Below are positions 3,654 through 61,368 of a stretch of 64,000 bases of DNA, piece after piece (within the stretch, counting starts at the first letter, position 1; every line of letters begins with the position of its first letter). A program made the translations under genes and the position numbers. The DNA comes from an uncultured Gemmatimonadales bacterium (lineage in GTDB: Bacteria > Gemmatimonadota > Gemmatimonadetes > Gemmatimonadales > GWC2-71-9). Below the pieces are notes generated by a model. It was not told where the DNA came from. It saw only the letters and a program-made list of their open reading frames with translations, and made no database searches. The stretch covers positions 928,001-992,000 of the forward strand of contig CAWGED010000019.1 of NCBI GenBank assembly GCA_963821525.1, read 5' to 3'.

Positions 3654-3877
3654 CGTGTCCTCCCACGCCCGAATACACAGAAGCGCGATCGTTCGCCGCC
3701 TGCTACTTCCGCGGGACGCTCGCGCTTTCGCGCTGCACCCGCCTTCGGCACCGAGCTATCTCCTGCGCCACTCGCGCATGAGACCTCTAGTTTTGCGGCC
3801 CCGGATCACTCCGGGTGTGCTATTATCGGGCGAGTCAATTGTTTTGGAACCCTTGTGGGTTCCGGCCATAACAATTG

Positions 3878-36559: not shown

Positions 36560-38190
36560 CTACTCTTCCGACATAAACGGATACTTGTAGTCTTTGGGCG
36601 GGTTGAAGTTCTCCTTGATGCTCCTGGGGGAAACCCAGCGCACCAGGTTGAGAACCGAGCCCGCCTTGTCGTTGGTCCCGCTGGCCCGAGCCCCGCCGAA
36701 GGGCTGCTGGCCGACGACGGCACCGGTCGGCTTGTCGTTTATGTAGTAGTTGCCTGCCGCGTGACGCAGAGCGTGATCCGCCTCGACCAGCGCCCGGCGG
36801 TCCTGGGCGAAGACGGCGCCGGTCAGGCTGTATGGGCTGGTCTGGTCCACCAGCGTCAGAGTCTCCGTCCAGCGATTCTCCGGATAGACGTGCAGGCTCA
36901 GGACCGGGCCAAAGATCTCCTCGCACATCGTGCGGTACTTGGGATCCTCCGCCTGCAGCAGGGTCGGCTCGATGAAGTAGCCTGTGTCCCCCTTGCAGCC
37001 TCCTCCCGCCAGCAGCTTCACGCCTGAATCCTTCTTCGCCCGATCGATGTATTCCCGGATCCGGTCGAATGCTTTCTGGTCGATCACCGCACCCATGAAG
37101 TTCCGGAAGTCGGCCACATCACCCATGCGGATATCGGAGATGAGCGCCGAGCAGCCGTTCCTTCACCTGGGGCCACAAGTTGGACGGCACATAGGCGCGG
37201 GAAGCGGCACTGCACTTCTGGCCCTGATACTCGTACGCGCCGCGAACCAGGCCGACGCACAAGCGCATCGACATCGGCGCTGGGGTGAGCCAGAACGAAA
37301 TCCTTACCACCGGTTTCCCCCACGATTCTGGGATAGGCCGCGTATTGCGGCAGGTGTCCGGCGATGGTCTTCCACAGCGACTGAAAGACCTCGGTCGAAC
37401 CGGTGAAATGGATTCCCGCGAAGGCACGGTCCGCGAGTAAGAGGTCGCTGATTTCCCGGGCGGGTCCGGGCACGAGATTGATGACTCCCGGCGGCAGGCC
37501 GGCTTCTTCCAGGCACTTCAGGATGTAGTAGTTACTGAGCGAGGCCGAGGCGGCGGGCTTCCAGACCACCACGTTGCCCATGATGGCCGGCGAGGTCGGG
37601 AGGTTACCGCCGATCGCCGTGAAGTTGAAAGGCGTGATGGCGTAGACGAACCCCTCGAGCGGCCGGTGATCCATCCGGTTCCAGGTCAGAGGCGCCGAGT
37701 GGGGCTGTTCCTTGTAGACCTGCTCCGCGAAGTGGACGTTGAACCGCCAGAAATCAATCAACTCACAAGCGGAATCGATTTCCGCCTGGTAGGCAGTCTT
37801 GCTTTGGCCAATCATCGTCGCTGCGTTCACGATGGGCCGCCATGGCCCCGCTAACAGGTCCGCGGCCTTGAGAAACACGGCCGCGCGATCCTCGAAGCTC
37901 CAGTTCGACCACTCACGCCACGCCTTTTGCGCCGCGCAGATGGCGCTCTTCACCTCGGCCGCACCGGCCTGGTGCACCTTGGCCAGCACCCGTTTGTGGG
38001 CATGTGGACTCACGCAGTCAATGGTGCGGCCGGTGCGAACTTCCTGACCACCGATCACGATCGGGATGTCGATGGTCTCGCCGGACATCTTCGCCAGGGC
38101 GGCCTTCAGCTGCGCGCGTTCCGCCGAGCCGGGCGCGTGGCTCAGCACCGGCTCGTTGATTGGACGGGGGATATTGATGGTACCGCTCAT
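36560..38190 (-). CDS. pruA: L-glutamate gamma-semialdehyde (P5C) dehydrogenase, two apparent +1 frameshifts (~37258, ~37148)
   Basis: PFNFTAIGGNL, FTGST, GETGGK, EYQGQKCSA, EEIFGP and QPFGG are spread over three frames. Confidence 0.92.
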
Positions 38191-38277: not shown

Positions 38278-39355
38278 CTACGAGTAGGTGCTGACGGCGG
38301 TCGCTTTGAAGCTGGCGTAGACCTGGGTTCCAACGGCCAGGCCCAATCGATCCACTGCTGCTTGGGTCACTTCGGCCACGAGCGGAGGGCGGGTTCCCAG
38401 AACGACCCGAACTCTCTCACCGAAGGGCGGCTCCGGAACCATCTCTATTACCGGACCGCGAAAGACATTCTGCGCGCTGCCGGCCGTAGGTGCCGCGGCG
38501 TAGAGCGTGATCTCCCGAGGACTCACCGCGACGAACGGGGTCTCCCCGACCTCCGTCCCGGAAACCAGGACCGGACCCTGGTCAGTCTCGATGCGACTCA
38601 ACCCGCCGGGCTGAGGCATACTGCTCCGCCCCTGGAACAGGTTCACGCCGGTGAACGCGGCCACGTACGACGAGCGCGGCTGGCGCAGCAATCGATCCGG
38701 GGTGCCCGATTGCACGATCCGCCCGCCATCGAGCACCGCGATACGCTGGCCGAAGACCACCGCTTCGAGGGGATTGTGGGTGACGAAAATCGTGGTGCAT
38801 GGCAGCGAGGCGAGCATCGCGACGCAGGTCACCCCGCACCCGGGCCCTGGTCTGAACGTCGAGAGCCGCGAGCGGCTCGTCGAGCAAAAGGAGCCGGGGC
38901 TTGAGGACCATCGCGCGCGCCAAGGCGACCCGTTGCTGTTGGCCACCCGACAGTCCTATCACTCGGCGGGCGGCGAGGTCGGCCACACCAAACTGCTCCA
39001 GCGCCCTCTGGCAGCGTTCAAGGATTTCTTGTTTTGGAGTCCGGCGAGCCCTCAGGCCGAAGGCCACGTTTTCGAACACGTCCAGGTGGGGCAGCAGTGC
39101 ATAGTCCTGCGGAAGCCACCCGATCTCTCGTTCCTGGGGTGGGAGATTGATCTTCCGCGCGGAATCGAACCAGGCGTTTCCCTCCAGGACGATCCGGCCC
39201 GAAGTCGGCCGGGTCAGCCCTGCCAGAAGGCGGAGGACCGTGGACTTCCCCGAGCCGCTCTCTCCCACCAGCACAAGAGTCTCGCCTGGAGGGACCTCGA
39301 GCTCGAGATCGAGCGCGAAGGCACCGTACCGGATGGCGAGTTGTGCTTGTAACAA
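38278..39355 (-). CDS. modC: Molybdate ABC transporter ATPase with TOBE domain, apparent +1 frameshift ~38820
   Basis: GESGSGKS, LSGGQQQR and LLLDEP, then FVTH and TOBE (SAQNVF..ASFKA) in the shifted frame. Confidence 0.9.
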
Positions 39356-39364
39356 GTCGAGCCT

Positions 39365-40156
39365 TCAGGGAACGCGGGACTGACCGTAGCGCAGCGCGAG
39401 CAGCAGCCCGAACGAGAGCATGATCAGGAGTACCGACAGGGTGATCGCCGCGCCGAGGTCATGTTGCATTTCCACATAGACCGCGAGCGGCATGGTCTGG
39501 GTGACGCCGGGCAGATTGCCCGCGAAGGTGATCGTCGCGCCGAATTCTCCCAACGCGCGGGCGCAGGCCATCGCGGTGCCCGCCAGAACCGAAGGGAGAC
39601 TCAGCGGCAACATCACCCGAACGAACGAGTAGAACTCGCCGGCGCCGAGCGTCGCGGCGACCTCTCGATACCGGTGCTCCACCGTGGTAAACCCCGCGCG
39701 CACCGGTCCGAGGAAGAAAGGAGCCGCCATGAAGGCCTGCGCCACGACCACCGCGGCAGTAGTAAACGGCAGCGACACTCCCCACACGCCGAGCGACTTC
39801 CCGAGCAGTCCGGCTCGGCCGAAAGTGAGCAACAGAATGAGCCCCGCCACGGTGGGCGGTATGACCATTGGAAGATCGAACAGGACCTCGACGATTCGTT
39901 TCCCGGGAAATTGACGGCTTGCCATGAGGTAGGCCGCTGGGAGCCCAAGAAGCAGAACGAGAGCGGTGGCGAGCAGGCTGGTCTCGAGACTCAGGAGAAG
40001 GGCCTGCTGGATCTCCGGCCGGCCCAGACGAGTCAGGAGTTCACCGGGGGAAGTGCGGATCAGGAGCGAAACGACAGGCAGTACGAGAAGGAAACCCAGC
40101 CCACCGACTGCAAGCCCCACCAGAGCCCGGACGGCAATGGTGCGGAGCAGCTTCAT
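39365..40156 (-). CDS. modB: Molybdate ABC transporter permease
   Basis: DLPMVIPPTVAG, ARALGEFGAT and GNLPG.TQTMPLA motifs. Confidence 0.95.
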   Translation of the reverse strand: MKLLRTIAVRALVGLAVGGLGFLLVLPVVSLLIRTSPGELLTRLGRPEIQQALLLSLETSLLATALVLLLGLPAAYLMASRQFPGKRIVEVLFDLPMVIPPTVAGLILLLTFGRAGLLGKSLGVWGVSLPFTTAAVVVAQAFMAAPFFLGPVRAGFTTVEHRYREVAATLGAGEFYSFVRVMLPLSLPSVLAGTAMACARALGEFGATITFAGNLPGVTQTMPLAVYVEMQHDLGAAITLSVLLIMLSFGLLLALRYGQSRVP

Positions 40157-40974
40157 TGAGAGGGCTGGGTCGCGGGTTGCACCGGGATGAAACCCGCCTT
40201 TTTCAACGACTCCTGCCCCGTGGCCGATTCTACCAGCTCGACAAACGCCTTGGCCAGTTCGGGGGAAGCCGCTCCGCGGACCACCGCGATTGGATAGGAC
40301 GCGATGACATTGGACGCTTCGGGAATCTCGAGTGTGGTCAGTTGGGAAGCGACTGATCCGGTAGCATCAGAGCGGTAGACCACACCCGCGTCGGCTTCCC
40401 CAAGCTGCACCTTCGCAACGACCCCCTTCACGTTCTCCTCGTAGCTCGCAACGTTGGCCAGTACCTGCTGGCCGTATTTGGATCCGAATCCAGGCTGAGA
40501 TGAGAGCTTGGCGAGCATCTCCCGGGTGTAGTGGCCCACCGGAACCGCCTCAGCGGCGATCACCAGCTTTACACCGGAGCGGGACAGGTCCTGCAACCGT
40601 TTGATGCCGGCAGGGTTTGCCACCGGGACGATCACGACCAGCTCGTTACGGGCAAATAGAACCGGCTCGCCTTCGACCAGTCCACTGTCTTTCGCGGTCT
40701 GCATCCACCGCTCGTCCGCCGAGGCGAATACGTCGGCCTCGGCTCCTTCTTGGATCTGGAGGACCAGCTGCTGGGAGCCGGTGAAGTTGAACCGGACAGT
40801 GGTTCCGGGGTGAGCGGCTTCGAAGCTCCTGCCGAGGCGGGAGAACGGTTCGGTGAGCGAGGCGGCGGCGAACACAGTCAGCGTCGTGGGTCCCTGTGCC
40901 GCACTTCTCGAGGACGAGACGCCTAGCACGGAGAGCGCCGAGAGAACCGTAGCGACAGACCTGCTGCGTTTCAT
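40153..40974 (-). CDS. modA: Molybdate-binding periplasmic protein
   Basis: FAAASL, ADVFASA, VPVG and GEADAGVVYRSD motifs; ATG 40974 with a signal peptide. Confidence 0.95.
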   Translation of the reverse strand: MKRSRSVATVLSALSVLGVSSSRSAAQGPTTLTVFAAASLTEPFSRLGRSFEAAHPGTTVRFNFTGSQQLVLQIQEGAEADVFASADERWMQTAKDSGLVEGEPVLFARNELVVIVPVANPAGIKRLQDLSRSGVKLVIAAEAVPVGHYTREMLAKLSSQPGFGSKYGQQVLANVASYEENVKGVVAKVQLGEADAGVVYRSDATGSVASQLTTLEIPEASNVIASYPIAVVRGAASPELAKAFVELVESATGQESLKKAGFIPVQPATQPSQ

Positions 40975-41364
40975 CTCCCTATCATCACCTCGGTGGACTT
41001 GATCACCGCGAATACTTGATCGCCAACCTTCAGACCCATGCGTTCGACCGAACTCCGGGTGATGATCGAAACCAGATCCTGGTCGCCGATGGCAAGCCGG
41101 ACTTCCGCCATCACGCCGTCGACTTGAAGCGAAAGGATCCGACCGCGAAGCCGGTTCCTCGCACTCAGATCGTGTACCGCTGCTGGAGCTGCTCTCGCTC
41201 GGGGTTCCGAGCAGCGCTTCGATCCTGGCGCGTGAAAAGAGCCATTTGCGGCCCACGCGACTCGCCGGGAGCTTGCCGGCGCGAGCCAGCGTTTGCACTC
41301 GCTTCTTGTTGAGCCGGAGCAGAGCGGCGACGTCTTCCACGCTTAGTGTATCCATATTGCCCAT
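40971..41364 (-). CDS. HTH-TOBE molybdate-responsive regulator candidate, apparent +1 frameshift (~41170-41210)
   Basis: Excisionase-like HTH (LSVEDVAALL..GKLPASRVGRKWLF), then TOBE LSARNRLRG..VFAVIKSTEV in the shifted frame; the stop overlaps the modA ATG. Confidence 0.85.
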
Positions 41365-41374
41365 TTGGTTGGCT

Positions 41375-41402
41375 ATTATAGTCCGTTAAAGGTTCTGCAC
41401 AA
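41375..41402 (-). promoter_or_regulatory. Sigma70 promoter of the mod operon
   Basis: TTGTGC-16-TATAAT about 10 bp upstream of ATG 41364. Confidence 0.65.
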
Positions 41403-41611
41403 GCGCACTTAGGCCATCCTTGGCCAAGTCGTCAGGCCAATCGGGCGAGAGATTCCGCCGATCGTGGTTCCCTGTTGAGACGTCCAAAGCCTAACGCCTT
41501 TCGCCCCATCGCAGTCGCAGGAATTGTGGCCTCCGCACCGCAAAACAATCGTGATCCGTGCCCGCAAGGGGGGCTGGACAGGGGGTGGGGGGGATGGGCT
41601 AGACTGGCTTA

Positions 41612-41803
41612 CGACCCCTGCCCAGCAGGGAGCGTGTTTGCATCCTCCGACCGAGCGGAGGGTCCACTCCTCACAGCTGACTCTCTCCTTGAGCTGTGGG
41701 GCCCCCAGTAGCGGGGGGGGCGAGGCCCAGCTTCCTGACAGGCTTCTCGGGCTGTCACGGAGGGGCCAGACCGAGTCCCGCACTAACAATGAAAAGAGGA
41801 GTT
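41612..41803 (+). ncRNA. Candidate structured cis-regulatory leader RNA (class not recognised)
   Basis: Five consecutive hairpins after a TGGACA..TAGACT promoter-like site; ACTCCTC (41666-41672) is the exact complement of the SD GAGGAGT (41796-41802). Confidence 0.55.
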
Positions 41804-41804
41804 T

Positions 41805-43038
41805 GTGAACGTCCTGGTGTTGGGTGCCGGCGCGGTGGGGACCGTGTCCGCCCTGAAATTCGCGCAGCATCCCATGGTGACCAGGCTGGTCATTGCGGAT
41901 GCTGTCCCTGGCCGAGCCCAGTTGCTCGCCGACCGCATTGGGAACCCGCGCGTGAGCGCCATGACGCTTGACGCCGGGAACCGTAGTGAACTCGCCCGCG
42001 CCATTCGTGAAACCGGTACGAACATCCTGCTGAACGCCGCCCTTCCGGCCACTAACCTGGTCGTGATGCGCGCGTGTCTCGACGGAGGATGCGACTACAT
42101 CGACATGGCGAGTGGCGGAGCCGCCATGGACGGCACCCCGAAACTCCCCGACCAGTTCGCCCTCGACCAGGAGTTCAAGGCCGCGGGCCGTCTGGCAATT
42201 CTGGGGATGGGGGCTGATCCGGGAACCAGTAACGTCTACGCCGCGTACGCCGCGAAGCACCTGCTCGACACGGTGACCGAGCTGCGGATACGGGACGGCG
42301 ACAATTCCGTCTGCCAGGGACACGATGGATTCCTGGCCGCCTTCAGTCCGTGGGTCTTCATCGACGAATGCCTCTGCGGAGCCATTTCCTGGCGCGATGG
42401 GACCTACCACCTCGAGGAAGCCCTCTCCGGTTTCGAGCCCTTCAATTTCCCGGAGCTCGGCGTCCTCAACACCTACTACGTTGACCACGAAGAGTCGCGC
42501 ACCCTGCCGATGTTCATCCCCGGCCTGGCGGTCGCGGACTTCAAGCTGTGCATGGACGATGTGACCTGGCAGACCCTGCGGGTCCTGAAGCAGATGGGCC
42601 TCTCCCGGACCGACAAGGTGCGGGTGGGAGACACCGCGGTTTCACCGCGCGATGTCGTCGTAGCCCTGTTGCCCCAGCCCGGTGATCTCGCCGGAAGGAT
42701 GCGGGGGAAGACCTGCGTCGGGACGCTGGCGCGCGGGATCCGAAACGGGCAGGCACGCAGCTTCTACATCTACAATGTGACCGATCACGAGAAGGTCTAC
42801 GCCGAATTGGGAGTTCAGGCCACGGCCTACCAGACCGGCGTTCCCTCCGGTAATCGCGGCCGAGTTGATGGCCAATGGTCGCTGGAGCGGCGTCGGGGTC
42901 ATGTCTCCCGAGCAGTTCGATCCCGATCCCTTCGTGGCCCGCCTCGGCGCGATGGGAATGCCCTGGCATGTCCGGGATGAGGAAACGGGGAAGATCGACG
43001 CAGTCGAGATGGATTTCGCAGAGCCGGTAGCGGCGTAG
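41805..43038 (+). CDS. Saccharopine dehydrogenase family protein, carboxy(nor)spermidine synthase-like, apparent +1 frameshift ~42845
   Basis: GAGAVG Rossmann motif, GADPGTSNVYAAYAAKHLLD, HEE and QATAYQTGVP; C-terminal PEQFDPDPF lies in the shifted frame. Confidence 0.85.
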
Positions 43039-43083
43039 GCCGGGGCCAATCGCTATCGGCCAGAGGCCAGTAAAGGCCCAATG

Positions 43084-43121
43084 ACACGAAGCCCTCCGCC
43101 AGAGCGGAGGGCTTCGTGTTT
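43084..43121. terminator. Rho-independent terminator between convergent genes
   Basis: Perfect 16-bp stem ACACGAAGCCCTCCGC-CAGA-GCGGAGGGCTTCGTGT. Confidence 0.85.
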
Positions 43122-43134
43122 CCAGGACCCGTCC

Positions 43135-43945
43135 TCAGAACGCGATGGACATTGAAGCGGAAACGCTCTTCGGTGTGGCCAGGAAGTGAGGTTGGCCCGC
43201 TCCGAAGATGGTCCATTTCCCATCCATGATCATTGCACTGGTGATCCCGACCGCGGCTCCGCCCAGGACATCGCTCAGCCAGTGCTGGTTGTCGTTGATG
43301 CGGGACCATCCCGTGAGAGTGGCCGCACTGTAGAGTCCGACCTGGGCCGGCCAGAAGTGCACTTCATTGCTGACCGATGCCGCGAGGGCGAAGGCCATCG
43401 CGGTATGTCCCGAGGGAAACGAAACATTGCCGGAGAAAGGCGCGAATTCATCCGGATCCGGAATACTGCTATGGTTCGGGCGCGTTCGACCGACCACATA
43501 CTTGATGATGCCGGTTCGAAAGGCCGGCCGTGACCAGTGAGCCGGTGATGCGGCCACCCGCCCGGGCGATATCGTCGTCCGACGCGATGAGGCCGGTCAG
43601 GATGGTGCCGAGGCCTACGGTGGCATAGACCTCGGGTTGTCCCATGTGACGGAAGACAGAGGCGATATCATCCTTCGTTTCGGTCCGGTGGCTCTGGGTG
43701 TAGTCCTGAACCGTCGCGTCCAGAAATCCGCTTGCCACGATAACGCCGGCCACCGCCGCCGCCTCGTACCATTGCACCGCGTGTGGCTCGCTGGCGGAAC
43801 TCCCACTACTCGATCCCTCAGTCGCAAGCGACGCGGGGAGGGGAGGGGCCCACGATTCGAGACGCGGAGCTGCCCGCGCCACTTGAGCGATCAGCGACGC
43901 GGGCACAAAGGTGACCGCCAGGCACCATCCGATCAGGTTGCGCAT
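43135..43945 (-). CDS. PAP2-family phosphatase, apparent +1 frameshift ~43515
   Basis: KYVVGRTRP, SFPSGH and SRINDNQHWLSD (C1-C3 motifs); signal peptide in the upstream frame. Confidence 0.88.
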
Positions 43946-44797: not shown

Positions 44798-44820
44798 GCT
44801 TGACGCGCTCCGGGGACCCC

Positions 44821-46213
44821 ATGCCCGCTCGCCCCGATGCTCCGCTCGCGGAGTACCTCTACCTTCTCGCCGGCGATCCCGAAGACTTCGTCGCCGCCTG
44901 CGCCGACCTTCTCCCCGCCGACATCGTCGAGGCGCTGAACGACCTCCCGCCGGAAGCAGCCTCGAAGGTGGTTGGGGCTCTGCCCTTCCACACTGCGGTG
45001 GAGGTCTTCGACCAGCCCGAGTTGGAAGCTCGGGACGAAATTGTCGAGCGGCTCCCGGACGACATCGCCGCCCCGCTGGTCCAGGCGATGTCGGCAGACC
45101 AGCAGGTGCGGCTGTTCCGGAGCATCAAGGGCTCGGACCGTGCCCGGCTGGGCTACTGTCTCGACGCCCCGACCCGGGATCAGCTCAAGCTGCTCCTGAA
45201 ATACCCGCCTCAGAGCGCGGGCGGACTGATGACCACGGAGTTTGTCAGCGTGCCTTCGGCCTGGACGGCGGCCCAGGTTCGCCAGCTCGTGCACGACGTG
45301 GGCAGCGCCAAGGAAACCGTCTACGCCATCTACGTCCTGGACGAGAAGACCCAGCGGCTGCAGCAAGTCATTTCACTGCGAGAAGTGATGACGGCGGCCG
45401 ACACGACGCCGGTCCGGGACATCGGGGATACCAGAAAGCCGGTGACCACTCAGCCCTCTCACCGATCGCGAGGAGGTGGCGCGCCTCATCGCCAAGTACA
45501 ACCTGCTCGCGATACCCGTCGTAGACGAGGCCAATCATGTCCTCGGCATCGTCACCGTGGACGACGTGATCGACGCGCTGGTCAAGGAACAGACCGAAGA
45601 CGTCCAGAAGTTTGGCGGTATGGAGGCTCTCGACCAGCCCTACATGGAAATCGGCCTGCCGCAGATGATCCGGAAGCGAGCCGGCTGGCTCTGCGCGCTC
45701 TTCCTGGGGGAAATGCTCACGGCTACCGCCATGGGCTATTTCGAACATGAGATCGAACGAGCTGTGGTCCTGGCGATCTTCCTGCCGCTGATCATCAGTT
45801 CAGGCGGGAATTCGGGTTCTCAGGCCACGTCCCTGATCATCCGTGCGATGGCGCTGCGCGAGGTGAATCTTCGCGACTGGTGGAGGGTCGCGGCACGGGA
45901 GATCCCCGCCGGGGTCACCCTGGGCGCGATCTTGGGAACCATCGGCTTCATTCGCATCGTGGCGTGGCAGGACCTGGGCTTCTACAACTACGGCCCGCAT
46001 TATCTGCTGGTCGCGATGACGGTAGCACTGGCACTGGTGGGGGTCGTGCTTTTCGGTTCCCTGACTGGCTCCATGCTACCCTTCGTGCTCCGGCGCATCG
46101 GCTTCGACCCGGCCAGCGCCTCGGCACCCTTCGTGGCCACGCTGGTGGATGTGACCGGCCTGATCATTTTCTTCAGTGTGGCGCTTGTGGTGCTGAAGGG
46201 GACGCTGCTTTAG
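44821..46213 (+). CDS. mgtE: Magnesium transporter MgtE, apparent +1 frameshift ~45455
   Basis: SAGGLMTTEF CBS pair, GIVTVDDV, GGNSGSQ and DPASASAPFVATLVDV motifs. Confidence 0.93.
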
Positions 46214-61243: not shown

Positions 61244-61282
61244 GTGTCTGATGGGCTATCTTAGGTGAGGTGACAATTGACG

Positions 61283-61330
61283 TCGTGGTGATTTGCGCCT
61301 ATTGCAGCCACGTTAAACAAGTGCTAAAAC
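61283..61330 (+). ncRNA. SAM-II (SAM-alpha) riboswitch
   Basis: CGTGGTGATTTGCGCCTATTGCAGCCACGTTAAACAAGTGCTAAA: P1 CGTGGT/GCCACG, pseudoknot TTTGCGC/GTGCTAAA and TTG/CAA; directly upstream of metH. Confidence 0.9.
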
Positions 61331-61336
61331 AGCCGC

Positions 61337-61368
61337 CCCCGGGTGCCGTTTTGGCCTCGGGGATTTTT
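61337..61368 (+). terminator. Riboswitch expression-platform hairpin with a U-tract
   Basis: CCCCGGG-T-GCC-GTTTT-GGC-CTCGGGG followed by ATTTTT. Confidence 0.65.

Follow-up and report, generated by a model that had tools for sequence, protein, structure and literature searches.

What regulates the dehydrogenase-like gene that starts at position 41805 of this window (the whole 64,000-nucleotide stretch of DNA analysed), and does the leader that precedes it form an RNA able to sense a polyamine? The leader is flanked by a divergent molybdate-transport operon and by the gene itself (41805..43038, + strand), which opens with a GTG and encodes a 410-amino-acid carboxyspermidine-dehydrogenase-like protein with the saccharopine-dehydrogenase fold (PF03435 and PF16653). 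Proteins 95-98% identical to this product were found, in a scan of genome contigs, to be carried by Gemmatimonadales MAGs. A preliminary description of the locus had proposed a structured leader of no known class, in which an anti-Shine-Dalgarno strand would control the translation of a polyamine-synthesis gene.

Inside the focal gene, near 42843-46, the window has one base more than a related locus (L031); the RNA contigs of two runs also lack this base, which probably reflects an error of sequencing. The assembly appears to be indel-prone, since several genes, the focal gene included, are apparently split by single-base indels; the others are the P5C dehydrogenase, the ABC ATPase of the molybdate operon and a third gene that we take to be MgtE-like (among 36560-38190, 38278-39355 and 44800-46213). 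On the minus strand, an excisionase-type HTH domain and ModA run together in a single ORF (40153-41364), a fusion that may be an artefact because ModA stands alone in L042. Two other riboswitches were detected in the window above the Rfam gathering score: c-di-GMP-I (3744-3831, - strand, 49.2 bits) and SAM_alpha (61275-61348, + strand, 41.2 bits). RNA contigs near-identical to the leader cover it in three of the four runs compared, each from a separate study (24 runs being listed); such contigs are uninformative on strand, start and level, and libraries of this kind can contain DNA. In these four of the 24 listed runs, positions 41422-41632 are uncovered and no contig spans the gene start with 31 letters on either side, and in one run the leader is deeper than the gene. 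As the contigs are silent on starts and levels, neither the uncovered stretch nor the depth was used as evidence.

All the features of the leader discussed here lie on the + strand. The hairpins named in the preliminary description were found in their places (41616-30, 41642-63, 41669-701, 41702-20 and 41724-67), as was the Shine-Dalgarno (SD) sequence GAGGAG (41796-801). When the leader was folded alone, its z-score was -1.49, with 21 of 200 shuffles equally good, and a second run gave -1.05, with 45 of 300; the lone fold is thus unremarkable for the G+C content of the window, and single-sequence folding was rejected as proof of structure because neither score is significant. That the leader folds beyond chance follows instead from the comparison of homologues. 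In an unfitted MAFFT alignment of 71 orthologue leaders, 97.3% of the cells pair and 11 of 35 base pairs show double changes, which bears out the expectation of conserved, covarying homologues; none of 500 shuffles matched this level of pairing and double change, and slid partners reached 40-52%. Once divergent leaders were added, 99.8% of the cells were paired across 82 distinct rows, in an alignment fitted to the nested helices from whose model the pseudoknot described below was left out. Since kinship inflates raw covariation counts, a second count followed the changes along a tree built from 76 coding sequences. Across 1161 pairs with a protein identity of 68-75%, the core of the element is 81% identical, versus 50% at four-fold sites (saturation 42%).

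Helix P2 (41642..41663) is 100% paired in the unfitted 71-leader alignment, in which one of its eight pairs shows double changes; four of the eight do so in the fitted alignment after a diverged form of the leader (g54) is added. Helix P3 (41669..41701) is the best-compensated helix by the tree count, with double changes in four of eight pairs and at least 5, 2, 5 and 6 coincident changes at these four on the tree of 76 coding sequences, and it is capped by a loop, L3 (41678-92), whose letters UGAC...CCUUGA are near-invariant. Helix P4 (41702..41720, pairing 41702-06 with 41716-20) lies where the preliminary description had placed it, but its stem is CCCCY/GGGGG and not GCCCCC/GGGGGC; four of its pairs are invariant and the fifth alternates between C-G and U-G, with no double change. 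A CGA junction, the variable P5 (41724-67) and an RGAC junction follow (41721..41771 in all). In P5, both base pairs reach 100% pairing and the interior is highly variable in length, and the CGA and RGAC letters are near-invariant, as are many other unpaired letters of the element. The universal core is made up of P2, P3 with its UGAC...CCUUGA loop, P4, CGA, the variable P5, RGAC and a pseudoknot strand. Both L3 and the base of P5 contain a CNGAC/YGAG pair, which could form tandem sheared G-A pairs beside a one-base bulge; natural A-to-C changes yield G-C in this sheared-pair register, and the motif is one that we take to resemble kink-turns. A pairing of L3 with the CGAGG junction was also considered and rejected, being 93% compatible, yet broken four times independently with no compensation.

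The loop of P4 (L4) is engaged in a pseudoknot, absent from the preliminary description, in which 41711-15 pair with 41777..41781 in the 3' tail, and for which covariation provides the support. One of its pairs is G-C in 37 sequences and C-G in 33, an A-U swap occurs once at another pair, and the end pair changed three times on the tree, on both sides each time, as parallel double changes. The pseudoknot is 100% paired in the 82 distinct rows, and the changes are wobble-compatible. In 75 of 76 sequences it ends 11-15 nt before the SD; for comparison, PMC10018353 describes a pseudoknot that still regulates when as much as 10 nt separate it from the SD.

Upstream of this core, the putative promoter consists of the -35 and -10 boxes picked out in the preliminary description, TGGACA (41575-80) and TAGACT (41600-05), both of which were confirmed in the sequence and are separated by a spacer of 19 nt (41575..41605). 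A loose version of this box pattern is present in 75 of 78 leaders, with TGGACA in 71 and the 19-nt spacer in 62, and a strict sigma-70 scan with spacers of 16-18 nt gave no match. From the boxes, we infer a transcription start near 41611. The leader keeps its own promoter-like boxes even within an apparent operon, and in the divergent g54 leaders such boxes lie immediately 5' of P2. The 19-nt-spacer promoter has G-runs before and within the spacer (41568-41605 and homologues); only two such sites were found in the host genome (G000), with one or two in shuffles. The g54 leaders also contain an 11-bp inverted repeat that overlaps the -35 box and spacer, possibly an operator or an upstream terminator. 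Between promoter and core, a 5' hairpin of variable sequence, P0 (41610..41636), folds at -5 kcal/mol or below in all 77 main-clade leaders when the 31 nt preceding the core are taken, a GC-rich stretch scored without a shuffle control; by inspection, it is missing from the seven divergent g54 leaders. The letters GUUUG (41636..41640) could form the 5' strand of a further helix, P1, with 41767-41771 (98.9% paired). As P1 has no double change in the 71-leader alignment, is disrupted in L105 and is missing in g54, the idea that it closes a five-way junction in all leaders was rejected, and both P0 and the GUUUG/CAGAC pairing appear to be restricted to the main clade.

At the 3' end of the leader, alignment and folding delimit a region (41796..41815) comprising the SD GAGGAG, a 3-nt spacer, the GTG start and codons 3-4, which can pair back onto the SD. 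The SD is invariant (76/76), GTG is the start in 75 of 76 sequences, and the local hairpin between SD and codons 3-4 has a median of -5.1 kcal/mol and is at or below -2 kcal/mol in 71 of 77. The CCUU of L3 is complementary to the SD in 75 of 76 sequences. Twelve changes are counted at the base that precedes the SD, every one of them to C or U, either of which pairs with an invariant G of L3; the neighbouring bases have 1-4 changes each. In 59 of 76 sequences, the base before the SD is an A, which does not pair. The L3-SD pairs are invariant or change on one side, and one pair is broken in L090 and L166. Partial support was obtained for the pairings of L3 with the SD and with a loop in the coding region, described below, and two other expression platforms failed. 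A candidate OFF hairpin between the pseudoknot 3' strand and codons 5-11 was rejected, since it appears in 55 of 71 local folds but nearly as often in synonymous-resampled controls (mean 0.75 vs 0.69), and holding the strand out eases opening of the ribosome-binding site by 0.6 kcal/mol (control 0.8). No conserved uORF or leader peptide was found among 78 leaders. An out-of-frame ATG lies 16 nt upstream of the start (41789-41791) in 46 of the 78, and a one-base loss brings it in frame in L091 and L098. In several g54 leaders (L161-L167), the tail repeats the L3 letters CCUUGAG just before and into the SD.

The structured element proposed in the preliminary description is real by these measures but larger than claimed, its conserved part running to 41848, inside the gene. 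Codons 9-15 form a hairpin (41829..41848) of -12.5 kcal/mol whose ends coincide with a block of frozen synonymous sites: there are 0-1 synonymous changes per site in the hairpin against a median of 16, and all nine of the 125 four-fold sites with one change or none fall within codons 1-14, the start codon among them. By a related measure, only one of 218 sites is conserved at 96% or above in the adjacent downstream ALDH gene. The hairpin is the main consensus helix within the first 150 nt; only 39 of 83 full-length nested folds give it a probability above 50%. We propose that the G-rich loop of this hairpin (41837-41) kisses L3 (41684-88), with 5 bp in 64 of 83 sequences and no more than 3-4 bp in 19. 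Codons 9-14 show a single synonymous change, at codon 12, which occurs in exactly those three sequences in which L3 reads UACCC (L006, L034 and L056), a co-change that was predicted ahead of inspection and then found; two metagenome loci (L111 and L113) show it too. The evidence for this kiss traces to a single evolutionary event, and the pairing is a candidate one. In a large ALDH-linked clade (L053, L096, L108), the synonymous sites of codons 33-42 are frozen as well, and codons 33-39 can base-pair with each arm of the hairpin at codons 9-15, which would give this clade a longer or alternative structure of its own.

Past the stop codon lies a 17-bp hairpin (43083..43120, + strand, -34.2 kcal/mol), a probable terminator or stabiliser that received no call in a U-tract terminator scan. 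It shares a CCTCCG/CGGAGG stem with P2 of the leader and is kept in close relatives only.

We then examined how widely the element occurs and what it accompanies. The scan of genome contigs yielded 104 relatives of the protein, and the best 80 of the 104 were kept. A covariance model built from the 71 distinct leaders matches 96 of 99 orthologue loci, a count made up mostly of training rows and with several genomes fetched twice; the three unmatched loci are on contigs that end within 11 nt of the gene, and all 96 with upstream sequence match. Among 151 genomes of the phylum, 18 (G000 included) gave a strong match, and the 17 full-length matches elsewhere all precede an orthologue of the focal gene. 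In 151 genomes of the family there were 16 strong matches; all seven newly fetched loci precede the same gene, and the others had been checked earlier. The diverged form (g54, 44-69 bits) is carried by 7 of 41 relatives of genome G347, in six cases ahead of a gene 61-63% identical to the focal one, the seventh contig ending just past a matching start. The leader RNA is present in one copy per genome, always 5' of the same gene, even where that gene has moved to other neighbourhoods, and no second copy was found in the host genome at E < 2. Outside these genomes, other phyla were probed solely by a strict pattern scan and three plasmid loci: the exact-pattern scan of metagenome contigs returned only three loci, all 5' of the same gene, and the motif was not found at the three plasmid homologue loci (98 plasmid records fetched). 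Nor was it found at 22 loci of distant homologues with 24-33% identity. Weak matches at L136 (E 0.02), L168, L182 and L183 are coding-like, lack the core and were set aside as chance; L137 and L181 are contig-end fragments on which no gene is visible. The focal gene itself occurs in 49 of 401 genomes of the phylum, of which, besides the host, 47 belong to the same family and one to a second family. The element accompanies a single gene, in one family and in one genome of a second family, and so gives no evidence of a regulon. Taken at the level of sequence comparison, these data demonstrate P2, P3, P4, the L4-tail pseudoknot with its inserted P5, the codon 9-15 hairpin and the linkage to one gene.

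What, then, does this gene encode? The preliminary description called it carboxy(nor)spermidine synthase-like, which is right as to fold and homology (structural homologues 4INA, 251.6 bits, and 8DEB, a carboxyspermidine dehydrogenase, 244.1 bits) but not as a family assignment, the match to NF043000 being 214 bits against a cut-off of 800. The nearest full-length representative outside the subfamily is 43% identical, and the focal gene thus forms an isolated subfamily. The catalytic His (H228) is kept, with His-Glu present in 76 of 76 sequences and His-Glu-Glu invariant. An Asp at the position after strand 2 of the Rossmann fold suggests the use of NAD(H). Asp32 is invariant there in these proteins, as opposed to the Ser-Arg-Thr of the NADPH enzymes, which suggests NAD(H) and an oxidative role. 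The present protein has the fold of the carboxyspermidine/carboxyaminopropylagmatine dehydrogenases (8DEB, 4INA; PMC13683441) and is homologous to them over its full length. Two residues of the recognition loop proposed in PMC13683441, N105 and E107, are replaced here by Ser and Gly in 76 of 76; the loop model is itself presented there as a hypothesis. Stand-alone homologues with 38-39% identity and no nspC-annotated neighbour were seen on plasmids of Streptomyces and Kitasatospora (L155-L157). These are oriented divergently from a TetR or HTH regulator and lack the RNA motif; they make up a second orphan subfamily, apparently under protein control.

The genomic context also bears on the reading of this gene as one for polyamine synthesis, which is left unsupported by the sub-threshold NF043000 score, by the lack of a decarboxylase partner in five genomes and by neighbours for uptake and breakdown. 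No carboxy(nor)spermidine decarboxylase (nspC) exceeded the cut-off in any of these five genomes (81-100% complete), each of which gave one weak match, and the two PF02784 fold-III decarboxylase genes of the host are lysA and speA. Polyamine genes lie within 3 kb of the gene in 53 of the 80 best loci (ALDH in 46, gabT in 21, a potA-like gene in 20, potC in 18 and an FAD oxidoreductase in 3); the potA-like count may include cross-matches. The FAD oxidoreductase is presumably SpdH-like, and Pfam yields FAD/NAD binding only. In the other 27 of 80, and likewise in the window, no polyamine genes were found within 3 kb. In g54, the gene lies downstream of potB, potC and ALDH and faces a glutamine-synthetase-family (PuuA-like) gene. 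The host carries its large pot/gabT/ALDH cluster, for the uptake and breakdown of polyamines and GABA, on a separate contig (C4:316000-334000, L158; also L159 and L160), with two binding proteins, potABC, gabT, aminotransferases, oxidoreductases and ALDH, and has PuuA-like and FAD-oxidoreductase genes elsewhere; the leader motif is absent from all of these loci. A gene with the deoxyhypusine-synthase fold was present in all five genomes tested, and that of G000 passes the cut-off for a homospermidine biosynthesis protein. Because many relatives place the gene among polyamine uptake and breakdown genes, it is probably catabolic. The subfamily probably does something other than make carboxyspermidine, and we infer both its substrate and its direction.

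We found no terminator-like site within 41300-43200, so that control of translation, as put forward in the preliminary description, is the most likely mode of action; the ACTCCTC mechanism offered for it is not supported. The fixed distance of 11-15 nt between pseudoknot and SD and the constraint within the gene tie the element to initiation, and we consider it very probable that the structure of the leader regulates translation in cis. In line with what is expected of a riboswitch, the element sits in the cis 5' leader of a metabolic gene (taking the start to lie near 41611) and combines a complex covarying fold with conserved unpaired letters; that it would be a riboswitch for some ligand has, in our estimate, an even chance, and that the ligand would be a polyamine (homospermidine, putrescine, spermidine or agmatine) has a somewhat smaller one. 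Our best explanation, to which we give about half of our confidence, is that a cis mRNA structure of ~240 nt controls initiation of the dehydrogenase, most likely as a polyamine riboswitch.

Under such a polyamine riboswitch, the invariant CC of L3 would pair either with the SD or with the G-rich loop of the coding hairpin, but not with both at once. With ligand absent, L3 would lie on the SD, aided by the SD/codon 3-4 hairpin, and little translation would take place. Binding of ligand would stabilise a compact form of the RNA, where L3 reaches over the ribosome-binding site to kiss the loop in the coding region and the SD is left only weakly paired, creating an ON switch for an enzyme that is probably NAD+-linked and catabolic. 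This exact route, with L3 passing from SD to coding loop, is a tentative suggestion to which we would assign about a quarter of our belief. Rather less likely is the complete proposal of a new class unrelated to SAM-I, working through L3 as an ON-switch that responds to homospermidine or another polyamine, for an undescribed NAD+-dependent, polyamine-cleaving dehydrogenase that feeds 4-aminobutanal to the adjacent ALDH and GabT.

The rival that survives best, though an unlikely one, is a protein-bound translational operator, with the fold recognised either by the product of the gene or by some RNA-binding regulator. The pseudoknots of the S4 alpha-operon and of rpsO are operator leaders that reach into the coding region. 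Autoregulation of this kind would fit the single-gene association, the extension into the gene and the narrow clade, and a protein might bind at the two similar CNGAC/YGAG internal motifs, but we know of no RNA binders among enzymes of the carboxyspermidine-dehydrogenase-like family, and no conserved regulator was recognised in the neighbour clusters, only some of which are annotated. Less probable again is a non-selective barrier to initiation, in which the GTG start (75/76), the 3-nt SD spacing and the paired SD would be tuned by general binding of polyamines or Mg2+. Such general tuning of inefficient initiation by polyamines is familiar from the mRNAs of the polyamine modulon. A general affinity of polyamines for RNA is also noted in PMC10853860, but the invariance of loops and junctions and the compensated pseudoknot surpass the needs of a generic barrier. 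Slightly more doubtful still is a function other than switching, as an mRNA stability or processing element or as a small RNA or ribozyme that is cleaved out of the leader and acts independently: the compact fold and the promoter-like boxes retained within an apparent operon would suit it, and the lack of a terminator downstream of the fold speaks against it. The least probable is the switch of the preliminary description, in which ACTCCTC (41666-72, indeed the exact complement of GAGGAGT) would leave P3 for the SD and so repress a spermidine-synthesis gene: the 7-bp match is perfect in the window (-10.7 kcal/mol) and recurs in 17 of 78 leaders, but it is missing in the other 61, where other lineages show -2 to -8 kcal/mol in shifting registers, it would require opening of the best-compensated helix, and the decarboxylase partner was not found in five genomes.

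How does the polyamine riboswitch that we favour compare with known RNAs? The claim that the leader belongs to no known class was upheld by a covariance-model check against Rfam 15, which gave no match at gathering score over the leader. With E up to 10 there were only three matches (E 5.5-8.6), none of them to the SAM family, and the leaders of four divergent homologue loci gave none with E up to 1. The Rfam models include that of the ldcC motif. No description of the motif was found in the literature searched, the supplements of PMC11109978 and bioRxiv 10.64898/2026.10.21.760802, which may list it, being outside the search; the main text of both contains no mention of polyamine, spermidine, saccharopine or Gemmati. 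As the second of these reports a clustering of 1.5 million intergenic groups, the motif may be present in it without a name. The leader appears to be a folded RNA outside any Rfam family, outside the SAM-I-derived spermidine class and outside odc1, and it would work like a translational riboswitch or operator with a narrow distribution.

Polyamine riboswitches have long been sought and, as PMC10853860 relates, earlier claims were unconvincing and one rare class, derived from SAM-I, has been validated. Like that spermidine riboswitch, the present leader precedes a polyamine gene and is proposed to sense a polyamine, but the former is described there as a four-stem SAM-I derivative of Gram-positive hosts that turns expression OFF by transcription termination, whereas here the fold and host are different and there is no terminator. 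The odc1 motif (PMC8632094) is likewise a pseudoknotted leader acting on translation initiation of a polyamine gene with a non-AUG start; it consists of one long hairpin, occurs in alphaproteobacteria, has its ribosome-binding site in P1 and carries a conserved uORF of 11 aa, in contrast to four to five stems and no conserved uORF here. The ldcC (PMC5737381) and potE (PMC8632094) motifs are orphan candidates upstream of other polyamine genes, potE being limited to Veillonella with weak covariation; our leader has no Rfam match.

The motif marks an isolated dehydrogenase subfamily and is directly testable, being an independent fold whose pseudoknot is compensated, of which some 90 variants exist in nature and for which few ligands need be considered. 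Its conserved part straddles the ribosome-binding site and takes in frozen codons, and would be clipped both by searches of intergenic regions only and by fusions that end at the start codon. Cobalamin, preQ1 and SAM-II riboswitches are translational switches that use pseudoknots or loop kissing. Like them, the leader places a pseudoknot a short, fixed distance 5' of the SD and has a loop able to dock on the SD; unlike them, it matches none of their sequences or models, and the second docking site that we propose for the loop is within the coding sequence.
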